From an uncultured Thermoproteaceae archaeon (GTDB taxonomy: Archaea; Thermoproteota; Thermoprotei; Thermoproteales; Thermocladiaceae): a DNA stretch of 18,757 nt. The stretch is taken from NCBI GenBank assembly GCA_964575955.1, contig CAZNTG010000014.1, positions 1 through 18,757 of the forward strand, given 5' to 3'. The position numbers were made by a program, and so were the translations under genes. Positions 9,848 to 16,719 of this stretch are shown piece by piece; within the stretch, counting starts at the first letter, position 1; the number at the start of each line of letters is the position of its first letter. The notes below the pieces were generated by a model. The model was not told where the DNA came from. It did no database searches and worked only from the letters and a program-made list of their open reading frames with translations.

Positions 9848-10999
9848 ATGTCACCTCAAATTAATAGAAAGATAGGATTTATTGTAGCTACAATAATAGC
9901 AGCTGTAATAATATGTGTATCAGCAATAGTCGTATATTATAGCAACACGCTCAAAACTTCACATATTTCAAAATCTAGAATACCATCATTAATAGAGCAA
10001 AATAAGACTAAGACTACACAGATAGAGCATAAACATAGAGCAAAATCATGTCTAGCTGGAATTTTGATATATAATGTAAGTAGAGCAAAGCTAAACTTCA
10101 TACTAAATATATCACACTACTTTGGAATTGTAGCACATAGAGGATCAGGAACAGTGTATGTAATATTTTTTGTCAGTCCAACATGTCCCTTCTGTAAGAC
10201 TGAGATATTAGCACTATACAAAGATATTCTTAATGGAAACTTTACAGGTAATCCAACTATAATAGTATTTCCAGTACCTGAACATGGATTACCAGATGTT
10301 TTGAATGTAGCAACGCTACTATGCATACTTAACAAGTATGGTAATGACACCGCATTTAGAGCATTAATCGATATGTACCATAGGTATTATACACAGAGAG
10401 ACAATATATACAATATATACTATCCAAACATTGTTAATATATGTAAAATCTTCAACGTAAGTTTAGATAAATGTATAGGATTTAAGAATATGACTATAGT
10501 GTATAGAAAGGTAAGTCAAGGTTCAATAAATCTATATGCATCATTTATAAACTGTACAAAAGAGTTTTATGAGAAATGTATAAACGAGACTAAGAATTCT
10601 ACAAAATGTATACAAATGTGCTATGCAGGAATATATATGAAAATTTCAAATAGCATAAGTAGGCTGTATAATAAGCTTAAGACAGAGAATGTAACAGTTC
10701 AAGATTTTACTAGTGATAACATGTTTATTAAATCTATAAAATCAGACTTAGCATGGTTTTATATAAACAAGATTTTAGGTAAAATTGATCTACGCGAGCT
10801 TGGTACACCTGAGATAATGTACATAAATGTTAAGAAGAGAGAAGTGTTAGTATATATTGGTCTTCAAATCCCGTTTTCAGAATATTCTAAGTATAGTAGT
10901 GAGATTTGGAGCGTAGTTGTGCCCAAGAGTATTGTGCCTAGAGAGATTAGGAATATAATCTATAACACATTTACAGGATGTTTAGATGTTGTAGAATGA
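9848..10999 (+). CDS. Membrane-anchored extracellular thioredoxin-fold (DsbA/DsbG-like) protein
   Basis: N-terminal basic residues plus a TM helix, FVSPTCPFC active site, late GTP cis-Pro motif, many N-x-S/T sequons. Confidence 0.75.
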   Translation: MSPQINRKIGFIVATIIAAVIICVSAIVVYYSNTLKTSHISKSRIPSLIEQNKTKTTQIEHKHRAKSCLAGILIYNVSRAKLNFILNISHYFGIVAHRGSGTVYVIFFVSPTCPFCKTEILALYKDILNGNFTGNPTIIVFPVPEHGLPDVLNVATLLCILNKYGNDTAFRALIDMYHRYYTQRDNIYNIYYPNIVNICKIFNVSLDKCIGFKNMTIVYRKVSQGSINLYASFINCTKEFYEKCINETKNSTKCIQMCYAGIYMKISNSISRLYNKLKTENVTVQDFTSDNMFIKSIKSDLAWFYINKILGKIDLRELGTPEIMYINVKKREVLVYIGLQIPFSEYSKYSSEIWSVVVPKSIVPREIRNIIYNTFTGCLDVVE

Positions 11000-11008
11000 T
11001 TTAGTATA

Positions 11009-12487
11009 TTAGTATCTTAATGCTATTCTAAGTAGTGTATTAGCCCTTTCTCCACATATTGGATCTCTAAGATCTTTAATTTCACTACTAACATCTTTAT
11101 CTATTGGTGTTCCAAGTGCGTCTGAATCTGTAAGTTCCTGTATCTTTAATCCACATTCTTTTCTACCACACCACGGTATTTCAACTATGTTACCCTTATC
11201 TACAAGTTCTTTTGCTTCCTCTATTTTTGATACTAACTTTATTCTACTTGTGAGGAAGTTCCATGCTTCTTGTCTAAGGTTTTCTATAACTTTATTGAAT
11301 AGGTATTTTAATGCTTCTATAAGTTCCGTTCTATCTACTTCATATTTTTCAAATGTGTCTCTTCTAACTACTGTAACTTTTCTACTTTCAATATCTTTTG
11401 GCCCAATTTCTATTCTTATAGGCACGCCTTTAAGTTCCCAGTAGTAGTATTTCCATCCTGGTGTTTTATCTTCTCTATCATCTACTACAGCTCTTATATT
11501 ACTACTCTTCAATTCTTCAAGTATTTTGTATGCTTCTTCTCTAACCTTCTCTTTGACTTCTTTATACATTATTGGTATGATTACTACCTGTATTGGTGCT
11601 ATGTTTGGAGGTATACATAGTCCTCTATCATCTCCATGTAATGCAAGCATTGCAGCTATAGATCTCTCAGATATTCCGTAACATGTCATGTGTACATAAT
11701 CTCTCTTACCATCAGGTTTGAGATACATAACTTCAAAAACTTTTGAGAAGTTTGTACCTAGATAGTGTATTGTACCTATCTGAAGTGTCTTACCGTCAGG
11801 CATTATTGTATCAAAAGCTATTGTATATACAGCACCTGGAAACTTATCCCATTCAGGTCTTATAGATATTATATATGGTACACATAGTTGATCAAAATAT
11901 CTCTTATATATTTCCAATGCTTCTCTAATCTGTCTTTCAGCATCTTCACGATCTGCATGAAATGTATGTGCTTCTTTAAACATTGATATCTCTCTAAGTC
12001 TAATCATGGGATGTGTCATCTTTGTTTCAGCTCTAAACACATTAACTATTTGATATATCTTGAATGGTAGATCTTTATGATCATAAATCCAATTTTTAAC
12101 CATTGGGTATATAGCAGTCTCACTAGTTGGTCTTAATATAAGTCTCTCTTCACCACTAAGACCTTTAGTTACCCAAAATACTTCCTGTTCAAAATTTCTA
12201 AAATGTTCAGCTTCTTTAGAGAAGAATTCTTGTGGTATAAATACAGGAAATTTAACCTCTTCATGACCAGTCTCATCGAGAAGTTTTCTTAATAAATCTT
12301 CAACATTTCTCCTAATCTTCATACCATATGGTCTCCATACATAACAACCCTTTACAGGATATCTAAAATCATAAATCTCACTCTCCATTATAACACTATT
12401 AAACCATTCTATGAAGTTTCTCCACTTTTCTCTAGGTCTACTCTGTCTCTCTCGAACAATTCGTAGTGATTCAATTTGTGTGGCAAT
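11009..12487 (-). CDS. proS: Prolyl-tRNA synthetase, archaeal/eukaryotic type (start uncertain)
   Basis: [56 protein letters not shown] and terminal Tyr. The ORF-track start at 12604 lies inside the upstream gene. Confidence 0.95.
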
Positions 12488-12517
12488 AAGTATCCCCTGA
12501 TTTGAGTTTAGATATGT

Positions 12518-12532
12518 TATATAAACTTTTTC
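12518..12532 (-). promoter_or_regulatory. BRE-TATA promoter of proS
   Basis: Minus strand GAAAAAG-TTTATATA; predicts a transcription start near 12495. Confidence 0.6.
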
Positions 12533-13460
12533 AGAAAAGAAATGAAATACTCTCCTCAGGACTAATCTCACTCTCCCTAGATACACAGACAGTAGGTGAT
12601 ACACAAATCTTGCCTCTATCAGGAATTATGAAGAATTTTAAATATCTAATACTTCCTGATCTATCAACAACAGGTACTGTAAGTATATTACCATCAAAAG
12701 TAATCTCATAACTACCTAAGTATGTTAGATTACCATAATTATAAACTTCTATAACAATCTTCTCAAAAATCTTACCATCAACATGATTAAGATCTACACT
12801 AGTATCTACAACATCTATAATAAATCCATACTTTCTAAATATATGCCTCAATGAGAATACTAAAGTTCTAGGATTTATTATGTAGAAGTTTGATATAGAT
12901 TCTACAGATTGTAATACACTTCTCATAATATGCATCAACTCTCCATAATCTAGATTTGATAAATCTTGCTCAATATCAACTCTATACTCAACATTTCTAA
13001 CGTATAGAAGATATATTAAGGATACTGCTTCATATGCAGGATTATTAAACATATCTGTCCAATATCTATACAAATTTATATTCCAATCAAACTCTCTATA
13101 ATATCCATACTCATCTACTATTACTACAAGATTTCTAGCAGATATCTTATTTAAATCTCTCATACTTAGAGTCTCATCACCGTATCTAGACACTACAATT
13201 ATAGTATCGTTATCATGAGCGTTCTCCATTATACTCTTGTACACGTCTACGTGATCTTTACGTATACTTACAATTTCTTTAAATGTTTTAATTGGAATTC
13301 TAGAATATCTAACTAGATCTCCCAATTTTACTCTCCTCTTAGTAACTATGATGTATTTTGATAGTTTAGTAGCTATGTACGCTGTTCTCAATAATACACC
13401 TGCATAGTATATATCTTCAGGATATGTGTAGACTATTGTCAGCATCCGGGTTATCACCAT
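12531..13460 (-). CDS. Degenerate SPOUT (TrmH/SpoU-like) domain plus an uncharacterised C-terminal domain
   Basis: [14 protein letters not shown] resembles SpoU motif 1; LVVIVDEYG and [13 protein letters not shown] resemble eroded motifs 2 and 3. Start may be M6 (13445). Confidence 0.55.
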
Positions 13461-13487
13461 CTACTCAGTCTAGGATACCTTCATCAT
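13439..13487 (-). ncRNA. Box C/D guide sRNA at the junction of the two SPOUT-like genes
   Basis: Minus strand: C ATGATGA (13487-13481), guide AGGTATCCTAGA, D' CTGA (13468-13465), C' ATGGTGA (13460-13454), guide TAACCCGGATG, D CTGA (13442-13439). Confidence 0.75.
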
Positions 13488-13916
13488 TTCTTGAAACATT
13501 ACTTCTGTAATTAACATTACTAGACTAGTAACTACATTATAACTCGTTCCCTGTATATTCATTGGAATTCTAACAACCTGAACTCTAGAACTATCAATTT
13601 TTACTAACTCATCCTTAGGTATTCCAATATCTTCAGCACCTACAATGATAGCTATATCACTACTAGATAGATCTACCTCATTAACATATTTATCTCCATA
13701 TGTCTCTAATACAACATACCTGATATTTCCATCATCAATACTCTTATAAGCTTCCTCAATATCTCTATAGTATAGAATACCCTCAATATTTGGAATTTCA
13801 ATATCCTCTCTCTGTATATACATGGGTTTTATATTATTAGCCCTACATATTTGAACAATATCCTCAATATTCTTCAAATTTTTCAATTTATACATTATAA
13901 CATATCTAATTCTCAT
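13470..13916 (-). CDS. Minimal SpoU/TrmH-family SPOUT RNA methyltransferase
   Basis: Motif 2 IIVGAEDIGIP and motif 3 VRIPM...SYNVVTS intact; VLETYG; motif 1 has Gln where Arg is expected. Confidence 0.85.
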   Translation of the reverse strand: MRIRYVIMYKLKNLKNIEDIVQICRANNIKPMYIQREDIEIPNIEGILYYRDIEEAYKSIDDGNIRYVVLETYGDKYVNEVDLSSSDIAIIVGAEDIGIPKDELVKIDSSRVQVVRIPMNIQGTSYNVVTSLVMLITEVMFQEMMKVS

Positions 13917-14698
13917 AAACTAGATATTGTACTTATTGAGTCTAGAATAAACTTAACTCCAAGTATTAGAAAGACAATACTAAACATAAATCTAACAATC
14001 CTTACAGAACTCTTCATAAGTAATTTAGAACCAACTCTAGCACCAATAACTAGTCCAGGCATTATGTAAAATGCTATTAGATAGTTACAACTACCTGATA
14101 TAAGTTTAATAATTGCACTAATGAATGACATCGGTGTAAAGCAGATTAATGATGTACCTATAGCAATTTTGATAGGTATATTGAAACCATAAGATAACAC
14201 AGGAACTAGAATTGAACCTGCACCCATACCTAAAATTCCAACTATAAATCCTGAAAAGATACCTAGCAGAGGTATTACATTGTTTGAATTAAACTTAATA
14301 TTGAATATAGGTACTCTCCTATTAAGATTCTCTAACATAGATCTAGATGATACATATATGAAGTATATCCCTACCAATATCTTCAATATCCATGATACAT
14401 ATCTCAAATATTGAAATATTATTGAACCTAATATCGTACCAACTATTCCAAATGTTGTAATGCTTGGTATTATGTCCCTTTTAAAATTTCTTAATCTTAG
14501 ATGCATTAAACTACTAATAAGACCATTCATGAATACTATTAAGTTTGTAGTACCTATAGCGATGTCTATGGGGAGATTTAGTATAAATGTTAAGAATGGT
14601 AAAACTGCAATACCACCACCAATACCTAGAAAGCTACTTAAGAATCCTGATACTATTCCTATAAGTATAGATTCTAAAATTATTACTGTGATGTTCAT
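13913..14698 (-). CDS. Sulfite exporter TauE/SafE (TSUP) family membrane protein
   Basis: Duplicated GFLSSFLGIGGG..P / GFIVGILGMGAG..VP and AIGT motifs; about 8 TM helices. Confidence 0.9.
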   Translation of the reverse strand: MNITVIILESILIGIVSGFLSSFLGIGGGIAVLPFLTFILNLPIDIAIGTTNLIVFMNGLISSLMHLRLRNFKRDIIPSITTFGIVGTILGSIIFQYLRYVSWILKILVGIYFIYVSSRSMLENLNRRVPIFNIKFNSNNVIPLLGIFSGFIVGILGMGAGSILVPVLSYGFNIPIKIAIGTSLICFTPMSFISAIIKLISGSCNYLIAFYIMPGLVIGARVGSKLLMKSSVRIVRFMFSIVFLILGVKFILDSISTISSL

Positions 14699-14785
14699 AA
14701 AGTTTTGATTTATAGAACATGTTTTTAAATATGTTTTAGTTTTGATTTTTGTATTAAGTATGTTTTGTGTAGTTGTTATTATTCT

Positions 14786-15517
14786 CTATCTGAAGTATTT
14801 ATCCAAACTTTCAATCCCAGCTTCTAGTCTTCTCTTATATTCATTACATAGTTTATGTGCATATAGTATTGGTATTGGCATTTGTGATCTTGTTTTTAAT
14901 AATGATCTAACTATTCTACATGCTGTTTCAAGTGTTATTAAATTTCCAACACTTACATATACATACTTGTTATAGTGTTTTAATGCTCTTCCAATAATAT
15001 CTCCTGTCTCTGGATCTACTATATTACAATAATCTTCATTACAATCTCTCAACTCTCCATATAGTAGAGATTTTGCACATCCTACAGTTGGTACTTTCAT
15101 TACTACTCCAAAATGTGCTGCAATTCCAAGTCTATATGGATGTGCTTTTCCATGACCATCTACTAAAACTACATCAGGTTTTATATTCAATCTTCTATAT
15201 GCCATTATCATAGGTCTCAACTCTCTTAAAGATAGTAGTGTAGGTATGTATGGAAATTCTATCTTCGTAACTATGCATGCTCTATCTATCAATTTTCCAT
15301 CTATGTCACATACAGCAGCACATGCAATACCATATTCTCCATCTTTAGAATATCTATATGCTAGATCTATTCCACATACCTTCTCAATCCTAGTTAATGT
15401 ATCTACTTCCTGAATTCTCTCTGATAGTATTTTCTGCATATTTCTAAGCTTTTCAAGACTATAATCTTTCGGTAATCTAGACTTTGCAATTATGTCAAAC
15501 TTCCTTCTATTTTTCAT
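14786..15517 (-). CDS. nfi: Endonuclease V
   Basis: GIDLAY, FPYIPTLLSLRE, VDGHG.AHP..GIA.H.G, GCAKS, YVSVG, P.PI..AH. Confidence 0.95.
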   Translation of the reverse strand: MKNRRKFDIIAKSRLPKDYSLEKLRNMQKILSERIQEVDTLTRIEKVCGIDLAYRYSKDGEYGIACAAVCDIDGKLIDRACIVTKIEFPYIPTLLSLRELRPMIMAYRRLNIKPDVVLVDGHGKAHPYRLGIAAHFGVVMKVPTVGCAKSLLYGELRDCNEDYCNIVDPETGDIIGRALKHYNKYVYVSVGNLITLETACRIVRSLLKTRSQMPIPILYAHKLCNEYKRRLEAGIESLDKYFR

Positions 15518-16134
15518 TCCTTATCACTCTCTTCAAAAACTTCTCTATAAACTTTCAATCTTGCAATCATTAGATCAGCTCTAGTTATCTCAACCATCTT
15601 CCTTATAAAATCAACCTTACCTCTAAGACCTGGAACTAATGCATCAGGTATAACTATTAGAGATAGATTTTCATAAATCTCCTCCATATATTTAAATATC
15701 TTCTCAGCATACTTTAAATCACCATTTCTCAAACTATCGACAACAATTCTTCTAAGTTCACCAACAACATCACCTAAACCTAAGAGATATGGTACTACCT
15801 CGACATTTAACTCATCTATTGTTGGTATTCTATCTCTACAAACTATCTCATAAAGTATCTTCGCTTCAACATACTCAGTTAATGGTCCATATATTAGTCC
15901 ACTATAGTATAGTTGTGGATATTTTTTAACTTCTTCAATTATCTTCTTAATAATATCTTCAAGCTTTTCTAATTTATTTTTAGCTTCTTCAATATTTTTC
16001 TTATGTATTGAATGTATTATCTCTCTTGACATTTTTACAATATCTCTACTCTCTTTAATAACTCTATCTCTAACATCTTCTAAAATTTTCAATTCCTTCT
16101 CTATATTCTCGATAGTTTCTCTTAACATCAACAT
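15514..16134 (-). CDS. Translin-family protein
   Basis: RD..IK.SRDI, EYVEA, YLLGLGDVVGELRR, LRGKVD; stop overlaps the nfi start (ATGA). Confidence 0.9.
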   Translation of the reverse strand: MLMLRETIENIEKELKILEDVRDRVIKESRDIVKMSREIIHSIHKKNIEEAKNKLEKLEDIIKKIIEEVKKYPQLYYSGLIYGPLTEYVEAKILYEIVCRDRIPTIDELNVEVVPYLLGLGDVVGELRRIVVDSLRNGDLKYAEKIFKYMEEIYENLSLIVIPDALVPGLRGKVDFIRKMVEITRADLMIARLKVYREVFEESDKE

Positions 16135-16242: not shown

Positions 16243-16719
16243 TTATTGTTCTACAATTTCAAATTCTGCAATTGCACCATCCTCAGTTATGTACGGGTAC
16301 CTCTTAGTAAATTTAGCATTTAAAAATATTCTAGGACCCATAGCTAACAATATCATCAATACCCAAGGGCATAGATGTTCTTTTCTACTCATTCTAGAGT
16401 GTAGTTGTCTTGCAAGTACACATCCAACTACATGTATTGTTAATATATTTCCATTTCTCTTAATTTGAATATCTTGAACTATCTTAGCCTTCTTCAAACT
16501 ATCTTTCAATCTATCAACACCTAGATTTAGAAGATCTTTAACACATGGACAATCACCAAATATGTCTCTAACAAGTTTAAGCATCTTAATACCATAGACT
16601 AGAGGTAACGTACTTACAATCTCCTCTAACGCATACACAAATATACATCTAACACATAGTAGAGATAGTAGTACCCTATAGTCAATTATGTCACCTCCCG
16701 ATCCACTAGACATAAACAC
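16243..16719 (-). CDS. Hypothetical protein with a 4VR/MetOD-like Cys pattern
   Basis: 158-aa ORF; IHVVGCVLA...HLCPW and terminal AEFEI recall 4VR-like ligand-binding domains (weak). Confidence 0.55.
   Translation of the reverse strand: MFMSSGSGGDIIDYRVLLSLLCVRCIFVYALEEIVSTLPLVYGIKMLKLVRDIFGDCPCVKDLLNLGVDRLKDSLKKAKIVQDIQIKRNGNILTIHVVGCVLARQLHSRMSRKEHLCPWVLMILLAMGPRIFLNAKFTKRYPYITEDGAIAEFEIVEQ

Follow-up and report, generated by a model that had tools for sequence, protein, structure and literature searches.

A candidate two-subunit SpoU/TrmH-class RNA 2'-O-methyltransferase in a Thermoproteales archaeon, with active-site motifs divided between neighbouring genes

Characterised SPOUT 2'-O-methyltransferases are described as dimers (bioRxiv 10.1101/2025.04.03.647152). 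For RlmR (T. thermophilus 23S rRNA Um2552) and TrmH (tRNA Gm18), structure or mutagenesis defines a cis set (Asn of motif 1, Ser and Asn of motif 3) and an Arg supplied in trans, with one RNA per dimer. Here we analyze two neighbouring genes, gene A and gene B, on an 18,757-nt stretch of DNA (positions 1 to 18,757 of contig CAZNTG010000014.1, assembly GCA_964575955.1) from an uncultured Thermoproteaceae archaeon; this whole stretch is called the window. The two proteins, assigned to the same class and sharing motifs with RlmR and TrmH, carry complementary parts of the motif set.

In the crystal structure of RlmR with RNA, N122, S236 and N238 of the protomer holding S-adenosylhomocysteine (SAH) surround the target ribose together with R128' of the other protomer, and each of the substitutions N122A, R128A, D235A and N238A nearly abolishes activity (PMC12123411). 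Most RNA contacts (R35', R39', R83', R153', N154' and T156') come from the Arg-donating protomer, and RNA occupies only one of the two sites. The Hori review gives the same account of TrmH, in which one subunit binds S-adenosylmethionine (AdoMet, here SAM) and Arg41 of the tRNA-binding subunit acts on the substrate (PMC5372735). In both enzymes the motif-1 residues are spaced N-x5-R, being Asn35/Arg41 in TrmH (PMC5372735) and N122/R128 in RlmR (PMC12123411). An engineered heterodimer of wild-type and R135A NHR keeps reduced activity (PMC4409310). Because this dimer still methylates with one Arg, one composite site should suffice.

We propose that A and B probably act as an obligate heterodimer, an RNA 2'-O-methyltransferase of the SpoU/TrmH class in which the two subunits share one composite active site. 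A would provide the SAM-binding trefoil-knot pocket and the cis residues that act on the target nucleotide, namely Asn16, Glu95, Ser125, Tyr126 and Asn127. B, a putative degenerate SPOUT paralogue, would pair with A through the usual helix alpha1/alpha5 interface and lend Arg25 in trans as the catalytic base. It would also bring an RNA-binding surface, formed by its basic N-domain with an RYSRxP patch, and its C-terminal domain would probably set substrate specificity. The mirror-image site, made of the B pocket and A residue 22, would be dead; with the cis set on one gene product and the trans Arg on the other, only one site could form. We infer that A and B bind each other, that R25 enters the A pocket, and that the pair is catalytic with RNA as its substrate.

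Motifs and conserved residues of A and B

The two genes lie on the minus strand, with A upstream of B. Features of A, B and the spacer are as follows.

13470..13916, minus strand: gene A, 148 aa, a minimal SpoU/TrmH-class SPOUT protein and the proposed SAM-binding subunit (ORF, open reading frame, list; Pfam PF00588)
13461..13469, minus strand: A-B spacer, 9 nt between the A stop and the first B ATG (24 nt with Met6 as the B start)
12531..13460, minus strand: gene B, 309 aa (ORF list)
13851..13871, minus strand: A motif 1, N16-IEDIV-Q22, Asn kept and Gln at the place of the catalytic Arg (translation)
13623..13640, minus strand: A motif 2, GAEDIG, G93-G98, the SAM-binding knot loop (translation)
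13533..13568, minus strand: A motif 3, I117-P-M ... S125-Y126-N127-V, IPMNIQGTSYNV (translation)
12981..13460, minus strand: B residues 1-160, predicted SpoU-type SPOUT domain, degenerate, of the subunit proposed to donate the Arg and bind RNA (AlphaFold2 model)
13386..13388, minus strand: codon of B Arg25, putative counterpart of the catalytic motif-1 Arg, within YYAGVLLR25TAY at 13377..13409 (translation, conservation)
13293..13310, minus strand: B R51-Y-S-R54-I-P56, conserved basic patch, proposed RNA-binding loop (conservation)
13011..13046, minus strand: B motif-3 remnant, with Ala and Glu at the places of A S125 and N127, Tyr143 kept
12534..12968, minus strand: B residues 165-309, predicted C-terminal alpha/beta domain with no recognised fold (AlphaFold2 model)

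The start of B may be Met1 (13460) or Met6 (13445), the second being used by several homologues.

Gene A is readily classified by sequence. Pfam PF00588 covers residues 44–135 with 42.4 bits against a cut-off of 29.7 (E 9.9e-11), and the closest solved sequence relatives are TrmL chains (4pzk, E 1.6e-4). That A is a TrmL orthologue was ruled out, as it scores 24 bits with NCBIfam TIGR00185, for which the cut-off is 190.6. Across 13 sequences of the gene A family, the invariant residues include K12, N13, N16, D19, R36, the LETYG strand, G93, E95, D96, G98, I117, P118, G123, S125, Y126 and N127, a set that takes in the Asn of motif 1 and all of motifs 2 and 3. Position 22 holds Q, E, N, K, A, S, T or Y across the family. 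Arg is found there in none of the 13 aligned sequences, none of the 13 genomes and none of nine metagenome loci. N-x5-R is also present in two canonical SpoU proteins (NIGYVIR and NIGAILR).

Gene B shows the reverse pattern. Tyr19 stands at the place of the motif-1 Asn, and the motif-2 and motif-3 places read DEYGYY and PAYEA, with loss of Glu, Ser and Asn. Arg25 is invariant: it is present in 10/10 and 31/31 aligned sequences, in all 13 genomes, in 7/7 metagenome loci, and in each of the 38 rows that reach this position in a 46-row B alignment. The surrounding peptide (G-V-L-L-R-T-A) is similar to canonical motif 1 (G-A-I-L-R-S-A). Across 31 B-family sequences, only R25, R54, P56 and Y143 are invariant, with S53 nearly so. 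The distance from R25 to the basic patch (26–29 residues) seems comparable to that from R128' to R153'/N154'/T156' in RlmR and from R20 to K42-R46 in TrmL. A keeps exactly the RlmR-type cis set as invariant residues, and B keeps the trans Arg. This consistency across both families goes beyond chance. The charge contrast between A (isoelectric point, pI, 4.74) and the B N-domain (pI 8.60, basic) is counted in favor of the heterodimer.

These results agree with an earlier reading of the locus made from its letters (the sequence-only reading), which had set the two genes 9 nt apart, described A as keeping GAEDIG, IPM, SYNV and N16 with Gln22 in place of Arg, and described B as keeping Arg25 while lacking the Asn, having eroded knot motifs and carrying an extra C-terminal domain. 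Its premise that TrmH-family enzymes receive the Arg in trans accords with published accounts (PMC5372735, PMC12123411). Its observations are confirmed, and its interpretation of the pair as a heterodimer is well supported by computation: the predicted fold of B, the invariance of R25, the co-occurrence of the genes and the modelled A:B interface, all among the checks it had listed, each turned out in its favor. It had further proposed that the two roles were split after duplication; the motifs and their conservation uphold the split, and the duplication origin found no backing when the B and A families were compared with hhalign (probability 0.5%, E 0.11, not significant).

The same residues bear on the alternative that an A–B heterodimer no longer methylates, serving instead as an RNA-binding scaffold or chaperone. 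Yeast Upa1–Upa2 offers a precedent, this SPOUT heterodimer being judged catalytically inactive and structural (PMC13015370), and a scaffold might well have an A without the canonical Arg and a B without SAM motifs. Yet one complete site is invariant, and on the correct subunits (N16, G93, E95, G98, I117, P118, S125, Y126 and N127 of A; R25 of B). That a full site is held while A position 22 drifts over eight residues would not be expected of a scaffold, and we consider this explanation quite improbable.

The B family is wider than an initial search had indicated. A profile search of 1.84 billion representatives gave 45 members at E <= 1e-3, of which two are doubtful, and 41 at the stricter threshold of E <= 1e-10. 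Lengths of the 43 credible members range over 146–320 aa, and no fused A–B protein was seen among them, no search aimed at longer proteins having been made. A locus search with a narrow B alignment returned three loci, all from metagenome-assembled genomes (MAGs) of the same group.

Predicted fold of B and the modelled A:B dimer

An AlphaFold2 (AF2) model of whole gene B, built from a 10-sequence alignment, had a mean predicted local distance difference test (pLDDT) score of 82.7. Among the listed Foldseek matches to modelled residues 1–160, 47 had E <= 1e-3, and nearly all of these were SPOUT proteins; the top matches were TrmL (best, 7e3t), RsmE, AviRb, TrmJ, RlmB and TrmH, with probability 1.00. 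VIA-align superposed 151/159 residues on 2ha8_A (Z 14.0; root-mean-square deviation, rmsd, 3.1). For residues 1–162, Z was still 11.5 at rank 50, and 152 chains reached Z >= 8, all listed ones being SPOUT. By these models, B residues 1–160 are predicted to form a complete SpoU-type SPOUT domain, the fold expected of an Arg-donating partner in the sequence-only reading.

The alignments also suggest where R25 lies. Catalytic Arg residues are R21 in SaTrmJ, R20 in EcTrmL (PMC3763551) and R41 in TtTrmH (PMC5372735). Counted from the starts of the VIA alignment ranges, B residue 25 falls on EcTrmL 20 and SaTrmJ 21, and one residue short of TtTrmH 41. Hence R25 appears to sit at the catalytic-Arg position, a placement obtained by arithmetic from the range starts rather than from aligned residue pairs.

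The complex was predicted with A residues 1–148 and B residues 1–165, each with its own alignment, in three runs. The interface score ipSAE was 0.90 for A:B in the three runs, versus 0.05 for the best control. This mark was reached by 58/80 solved complexes and 2/110 mismatched pairs. At least 93% of contacts agreed between A:B runs, and the pLDDT of the partners was at least 81. In the model, each chain contributes helix alpha1 and its C-terminal helix to the interface, as is canonical for SPOUT dimers. The interface involves A residues 15, 19, 22-23, 26-27, 117-121 and 124-145, and B residues 18, 22, 25-26, 28-32, 54 and 135-157; thus R25 and R54 of B and the IPM/SYN loop of A all lie within it. 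The pseudo-twofold axis pairs A residues 15, 19, 22, 23, 26 and 27 with B residues 18, 22, 25, 26, 29 and 30. Because of this symmetry in the modelled dimer, Q22 of A would be the counterpart of R25 of B. The invariant Y143 of B packs on A residues 19, 23 and 129–133 in the model.

The C-terminal domain of B (residues 165–309) was modelled with confidence (AF2 pLDDT 89.4; predicted template modelling score, pTM, 0.81) as two helices packed on a long antiparallel sheet. Foldseek against the PDB gave no match to this domain at E <= 1e-3, and the best VIA score against 48,161 chains was at noise level (Z 4.7). The modelled domain is without an assigned fold, although such searches do not make a fold new.

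Occurrence, gene context and alternative explanations

We looked for both genes in other genomes. B was present in 8/41 relatives, after removal of one presumed false positive, and A was present in the same eight; likewise, in a sample of 401 genomes from across the phylum, six carried A and the same six carried B. Together the two samples include 13 distinct genomes with both genes and none with only one. The discarded match (in G015, E 0.0067) lay in an ORF that resembles a short-chain dehydrogenase by sequence and aligned over ∼61 residues. Neither gene was found in one 71%-complete genome of a genus that otherwise carries the pair. A and B are adjacent in 12/13 genomes, in two different orientations: in the window's genus, A is followed by B on the same strand, and a head-to-head arrangement occurs in G026 and 4/5 genomes of family f29. 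In the remaining genome (G125) they lie ∼730 kb apart, both present. Among metagenomes, the A profile detected 12 loci. Nine score as A family; B adjoins A in seven of them, and in two the contig runs out at the place expected for B. The three weak loci (E 1.6e-8 to 1.9e-11) score far lower than the A family; L042 and L044 carry N-x5-R, and L045 scores the same as L044.

Several points weigh against the heterodimer proposal. B has no match to a sequence family in Pfam or NCBIfam, PF00588 matched 0/31 B-family members, a B-family profile found no SPOUT chain among PDB sequences, and the hhalign comparison with the A family was not significant. A phmmer search of PDB sequences with B gave only a weak TrmL row (7e3t, E 0.25). 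Because no sequence method ties B to SPOUT, the fold assignment rests on predicted models, which were made from 10–12 sequences. The high score of the A:B complex may stem from the model's memory of the many solved SPOUT homodimers; it indicates likeness to SPOUT dimers rather than binding, and the comparison covers the A:B pair only. The co-occurrence counts overstate independence, as the pair-bearing genomes represent three lineages of related organisms. Invariant Arg36 of A could in principle replace the catalytic base or bind RNA, permitting a working A homodimer. B may still bind SAM, because SPOUT pockets bind mostly via backbone atoms. Finally, an RNA-binding role for the C-terminal domain of B is a guess, given its acidity (pI 5.11) and its lack of a known fold.

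These points make it worth asking whether the pairing is incidental, with B an unrelated protein whose SPOUT-like model and motif-1-like peptide arose by chance. Besides having no significant sequence match to any family, B fared poorly in the ESM Atlas, where its single-sequence model was poor (pLDDT 0.59), no usable feature was matched and all structure rows fell below threshold. Chance would, however, have to account for a VIA Z of 14.0 over 151/159 residues and for 152 chains at Z >= 8, SPOUT proteins throughout among those listed, as well as for adjacency in two orientations across lineages and the presence of both genes in 13/13 genomes. We regard it as hardly credible.

A further possibility is that A acts as a homodimer, with another base or no Arg, and that B is a separate accessory, regulatory or RNA-binding protein sharing its operon and pathway. 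Characterised SPOUT 2'-O-methyltransferases are described as dimers of one protein (bioRxiv 10.1101/2025.04.03.647152); A has invariant R36 and K12; and TrmL functions without an extension domain (PMC3763551). Against this, TrmH, TrmL, both TrmJ enzymes and RlmR lose all or almost all activity when their motif-1 Arg is mutated, and NHR R135A is described as inactive (PMC4409310). The sole invariant Arg at that structural position is in B, which has a predicted SPOUT fold and a canonical modelled interface with A. In addition, A is acidic, and the co-occurrence persists where the genes are unlinked (G125). We therefore judge a self-sufficient A unlikely, and favor the composite A–B enzyme.

The surrounding genes in the window are listed below.

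13913..14698, minus strand: TauE/SafE-family membrane protein gene (Pfam PF01925, E 1.5e-42)
14786..15517, minus strand: Endonuclease V gene (Pfam PF04493, E 2.3e-52)
15514..16134, minus strand: translin-family gene (PF01997, E 4.7e-19)
11009..12388 (listed ORF to 12604), minus strand: prolyl-tRNA synthetase (ProRS) gene, downstream of B (Pfam tRNA-synt_2b, HGTP_anticodon, ProRS-C_1)

The stop of the TauE/SafE gene overlaps the start of gene A by 4 nt. In four other species of the genus (L002, L004, L005 and L006), Endonuclease V lies directly upstream of A and no TauE/SafE gene occupies that position between them; in L004, ProRS follows B. The TauE/SafE gene of the window thus looks like an insertion into an EndoV-A-B-ProRS string. 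The Endonuclease V stop overlaps the A start by 4 nt in three of these species, and a 7-nt gap separates them in L006. In the window, the Endonuclease V and translin-family genes, both on the minus strand, share 4 nt and may form an operon for two proteins that process nucleic acids. The listed ProRS ORF begins with GTG and shares 74 nt with the 3' end of gene B, and its Pfam core starts at residue 151; Met73 at 12388 is the likely start rather than the listed GTG. Two other ORFs of the window, 9848..10999 (383 aa) and 16243..16719 (158 aa), have no Pfam family at E <= 0.001. The window is ∼30% G+C. A bacterial-type scan found no terminator-like site in 12300..15000, which is weak evidence in an archaeon, and 29 promoter-like sites versus 21 +/- 5.3 in shuffles, which is uninformative for an archaeon.

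Elsewhere the neighbours differ. A GTP cyclohydrolase I gene (PF01227, E ∼1e-67) is convergent with A and adjoins it in all five f29-type loci checked:

L018, 501..1070: GTP cyclohydrolase I gene
L019, 2732..3298: GTP cyclohydrolase I gene
L021, 2848..3417: GTP cyclohydrolase I gene
L039, 2702..3403: GTP cyclohydrolase I gene
L041, 3453..4022: GTP cyclohydrolase I gene

Archaeal GTP cyclohydrolase I supplies the 7-deazaguanine modification of tRNA, and this neighbour may hint at a tRNA context for A and B, gene neighbourhood being only suggestive as a clue to their target. In G026, a DUF72 gene (L008, 2400..3116; PF01904, E 7.3e-48) overlaps the gene B stop by 4 nt, and A has a PaREP1/HEPN-like gene on its downstream side.

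We also surveyed SpoU proteins in the host and its relatives. In the window's genome, gene A is the only protein above the PF00588 cut-off. Contig C3 of this genome (G000; L029, 1399..2412) encodes a protein of 337 aa whose C-terminal half matches SpoU weakly (E 6.8e-4) and which has a long extension at its N terminus, a layout that resembles the THUMP-SPOUT enzyme TrmTS. Contig C12 of the same genome (L030, 1453..1953) encodes a 166-aa DUF2122 protein (E 2.3e-22). PF00588 matched at E <= 0.001 in 0/32 genomes (G007-G025, G027-G040) drawn from the remaining genera of the window's family and from a second family of its order, and it matched in 14/14 control genomes. These relatives seem to be without SpoU-class methyltransferases altogether. 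The idea that A/B replaces a TrmJ-like enzyme of the relatives was rejected on the same count. Since none of the 32 has a PF00588 match, gene-presence complementarity gives no clue to the RNA target; the pair may mark a lineage-specific RNA modification.

Comparison with known two-subunit and SPOUT systems

The trans-Arg mechanism and the one-RNA-per-dimer behavior of SPOUT 2'-O-methyltransferases have so far been inferred from homodimers, in which the two subunit roles are genetically inseparable except by laborious mixed-dimer preparations such as those of NHR. If the A–B proposal is true, each role could be mutated, labelled and crystallised on its own, giving a clean test of the TrmH/RlmR mechanism. 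SPOUT 2'-O-methyltransferases would also join the RNA-modifying enzymes that pair a catalytic subunit with a degenerate paralogue, and a function would be gained for the B family (45 clusters at E <= 1e-3, including two doubtful ones), which lacks a family annotation, and for a domain of no known fold. A fuller version of the proposal holds that this is a natural obligate SPOUT heterodimer with its cis and trans halves on two genes and one site, in which a hitherto unseen C-terminal fold of an Arg-donating pseudoenzyme directs modification of an RNA position unassigned to any protein enzyme in these archaea. We find that version plausible and slightly favored.

Of the described enzymes, TrmL (YibK/CspR; the minimal bacterial tRNA Cm34/Um34 2'-O-methyltransferase) gives the best PDB sequence matches for A and the best Foldseek match for B (7e3t). 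Like the A and B SPOUT regions, it is a SPOUT-only domain of ∼150 aa. It differs in being a homodimer, each subunit of which has the Arg and the SAM motifs, whereas A has no Arg and B has an extra 145-aa domain. RlmR and TrmH are homodimers too, with two potential sites; in A/B, the cis set and the trans Arg are on two gene products. The crystallised SPOUT 2'-O-methyltransferases compared here are all homodimers, unlike the proposed A/B. The wild-type/R135A NHR dimer resembles the proposed enzyme in that a SpoU-family dimer methylates with one catalytic Arg, but it is a laboratory construct of one gene, and both subunits bind SAM.

Two-subunit assemblies provide the other comparisons. Trm6–Trm61 (m1A58) is a two-subunit RNA-modifying enzyme with a catalytic subunit and a degenerate paralogue. 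That second subunit binds RNA, much as is proposed for B. The fold of Trm6–Trm61 is Rossmann, not SPOUT, and its active site is not known to be similarly built from a catalytic residue supplied in trans.

Within the SPOUT superfamily, T. brucei mt-LAF5/mt-LAF6 (PDB 6YXX) is described as a natural heterodimer of two SpoU-type proteins on rRNA H92, the mitoribosomal A-loop helix. Its chains match the B model, 6yxx_EE in Foldseek, and 6yxx_EF (Z 13.3) and 6yxy_EE in VIA. Unlike A/B, it is a eukaryotic mitoribosome assembly factor made of long proteins. Yeast Upa1–Upa2 (COG2106), a heterodimer predicted in 2007 (PMC1829167), is likewise a pair of SPOUT paralogues with distinct subunit roles (PMC13015370). 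Its SPOUT class is a different one and includes an OB insert; SAM binding appears to be absent from both subunits, and the heterodimer has a structural role (PMC13015370). The sequence-only reading had taken the arrangement of A and B to be undescribed. That does not hold for SPOUT heterodimers as such, given mt-LAF5/6 and Upa1–Upa2; it may hold for the complementary split, since no SPOUT enzyme with cis residues and trans Arg divided between two genes was found in the accessible literature, a search that left subscription papers and supplements outside its scope and is not proof of absence. Natural SPOUT heterodimers are already known, and what would be new in A/B is the complementary division of cis and trans residues between two genes.

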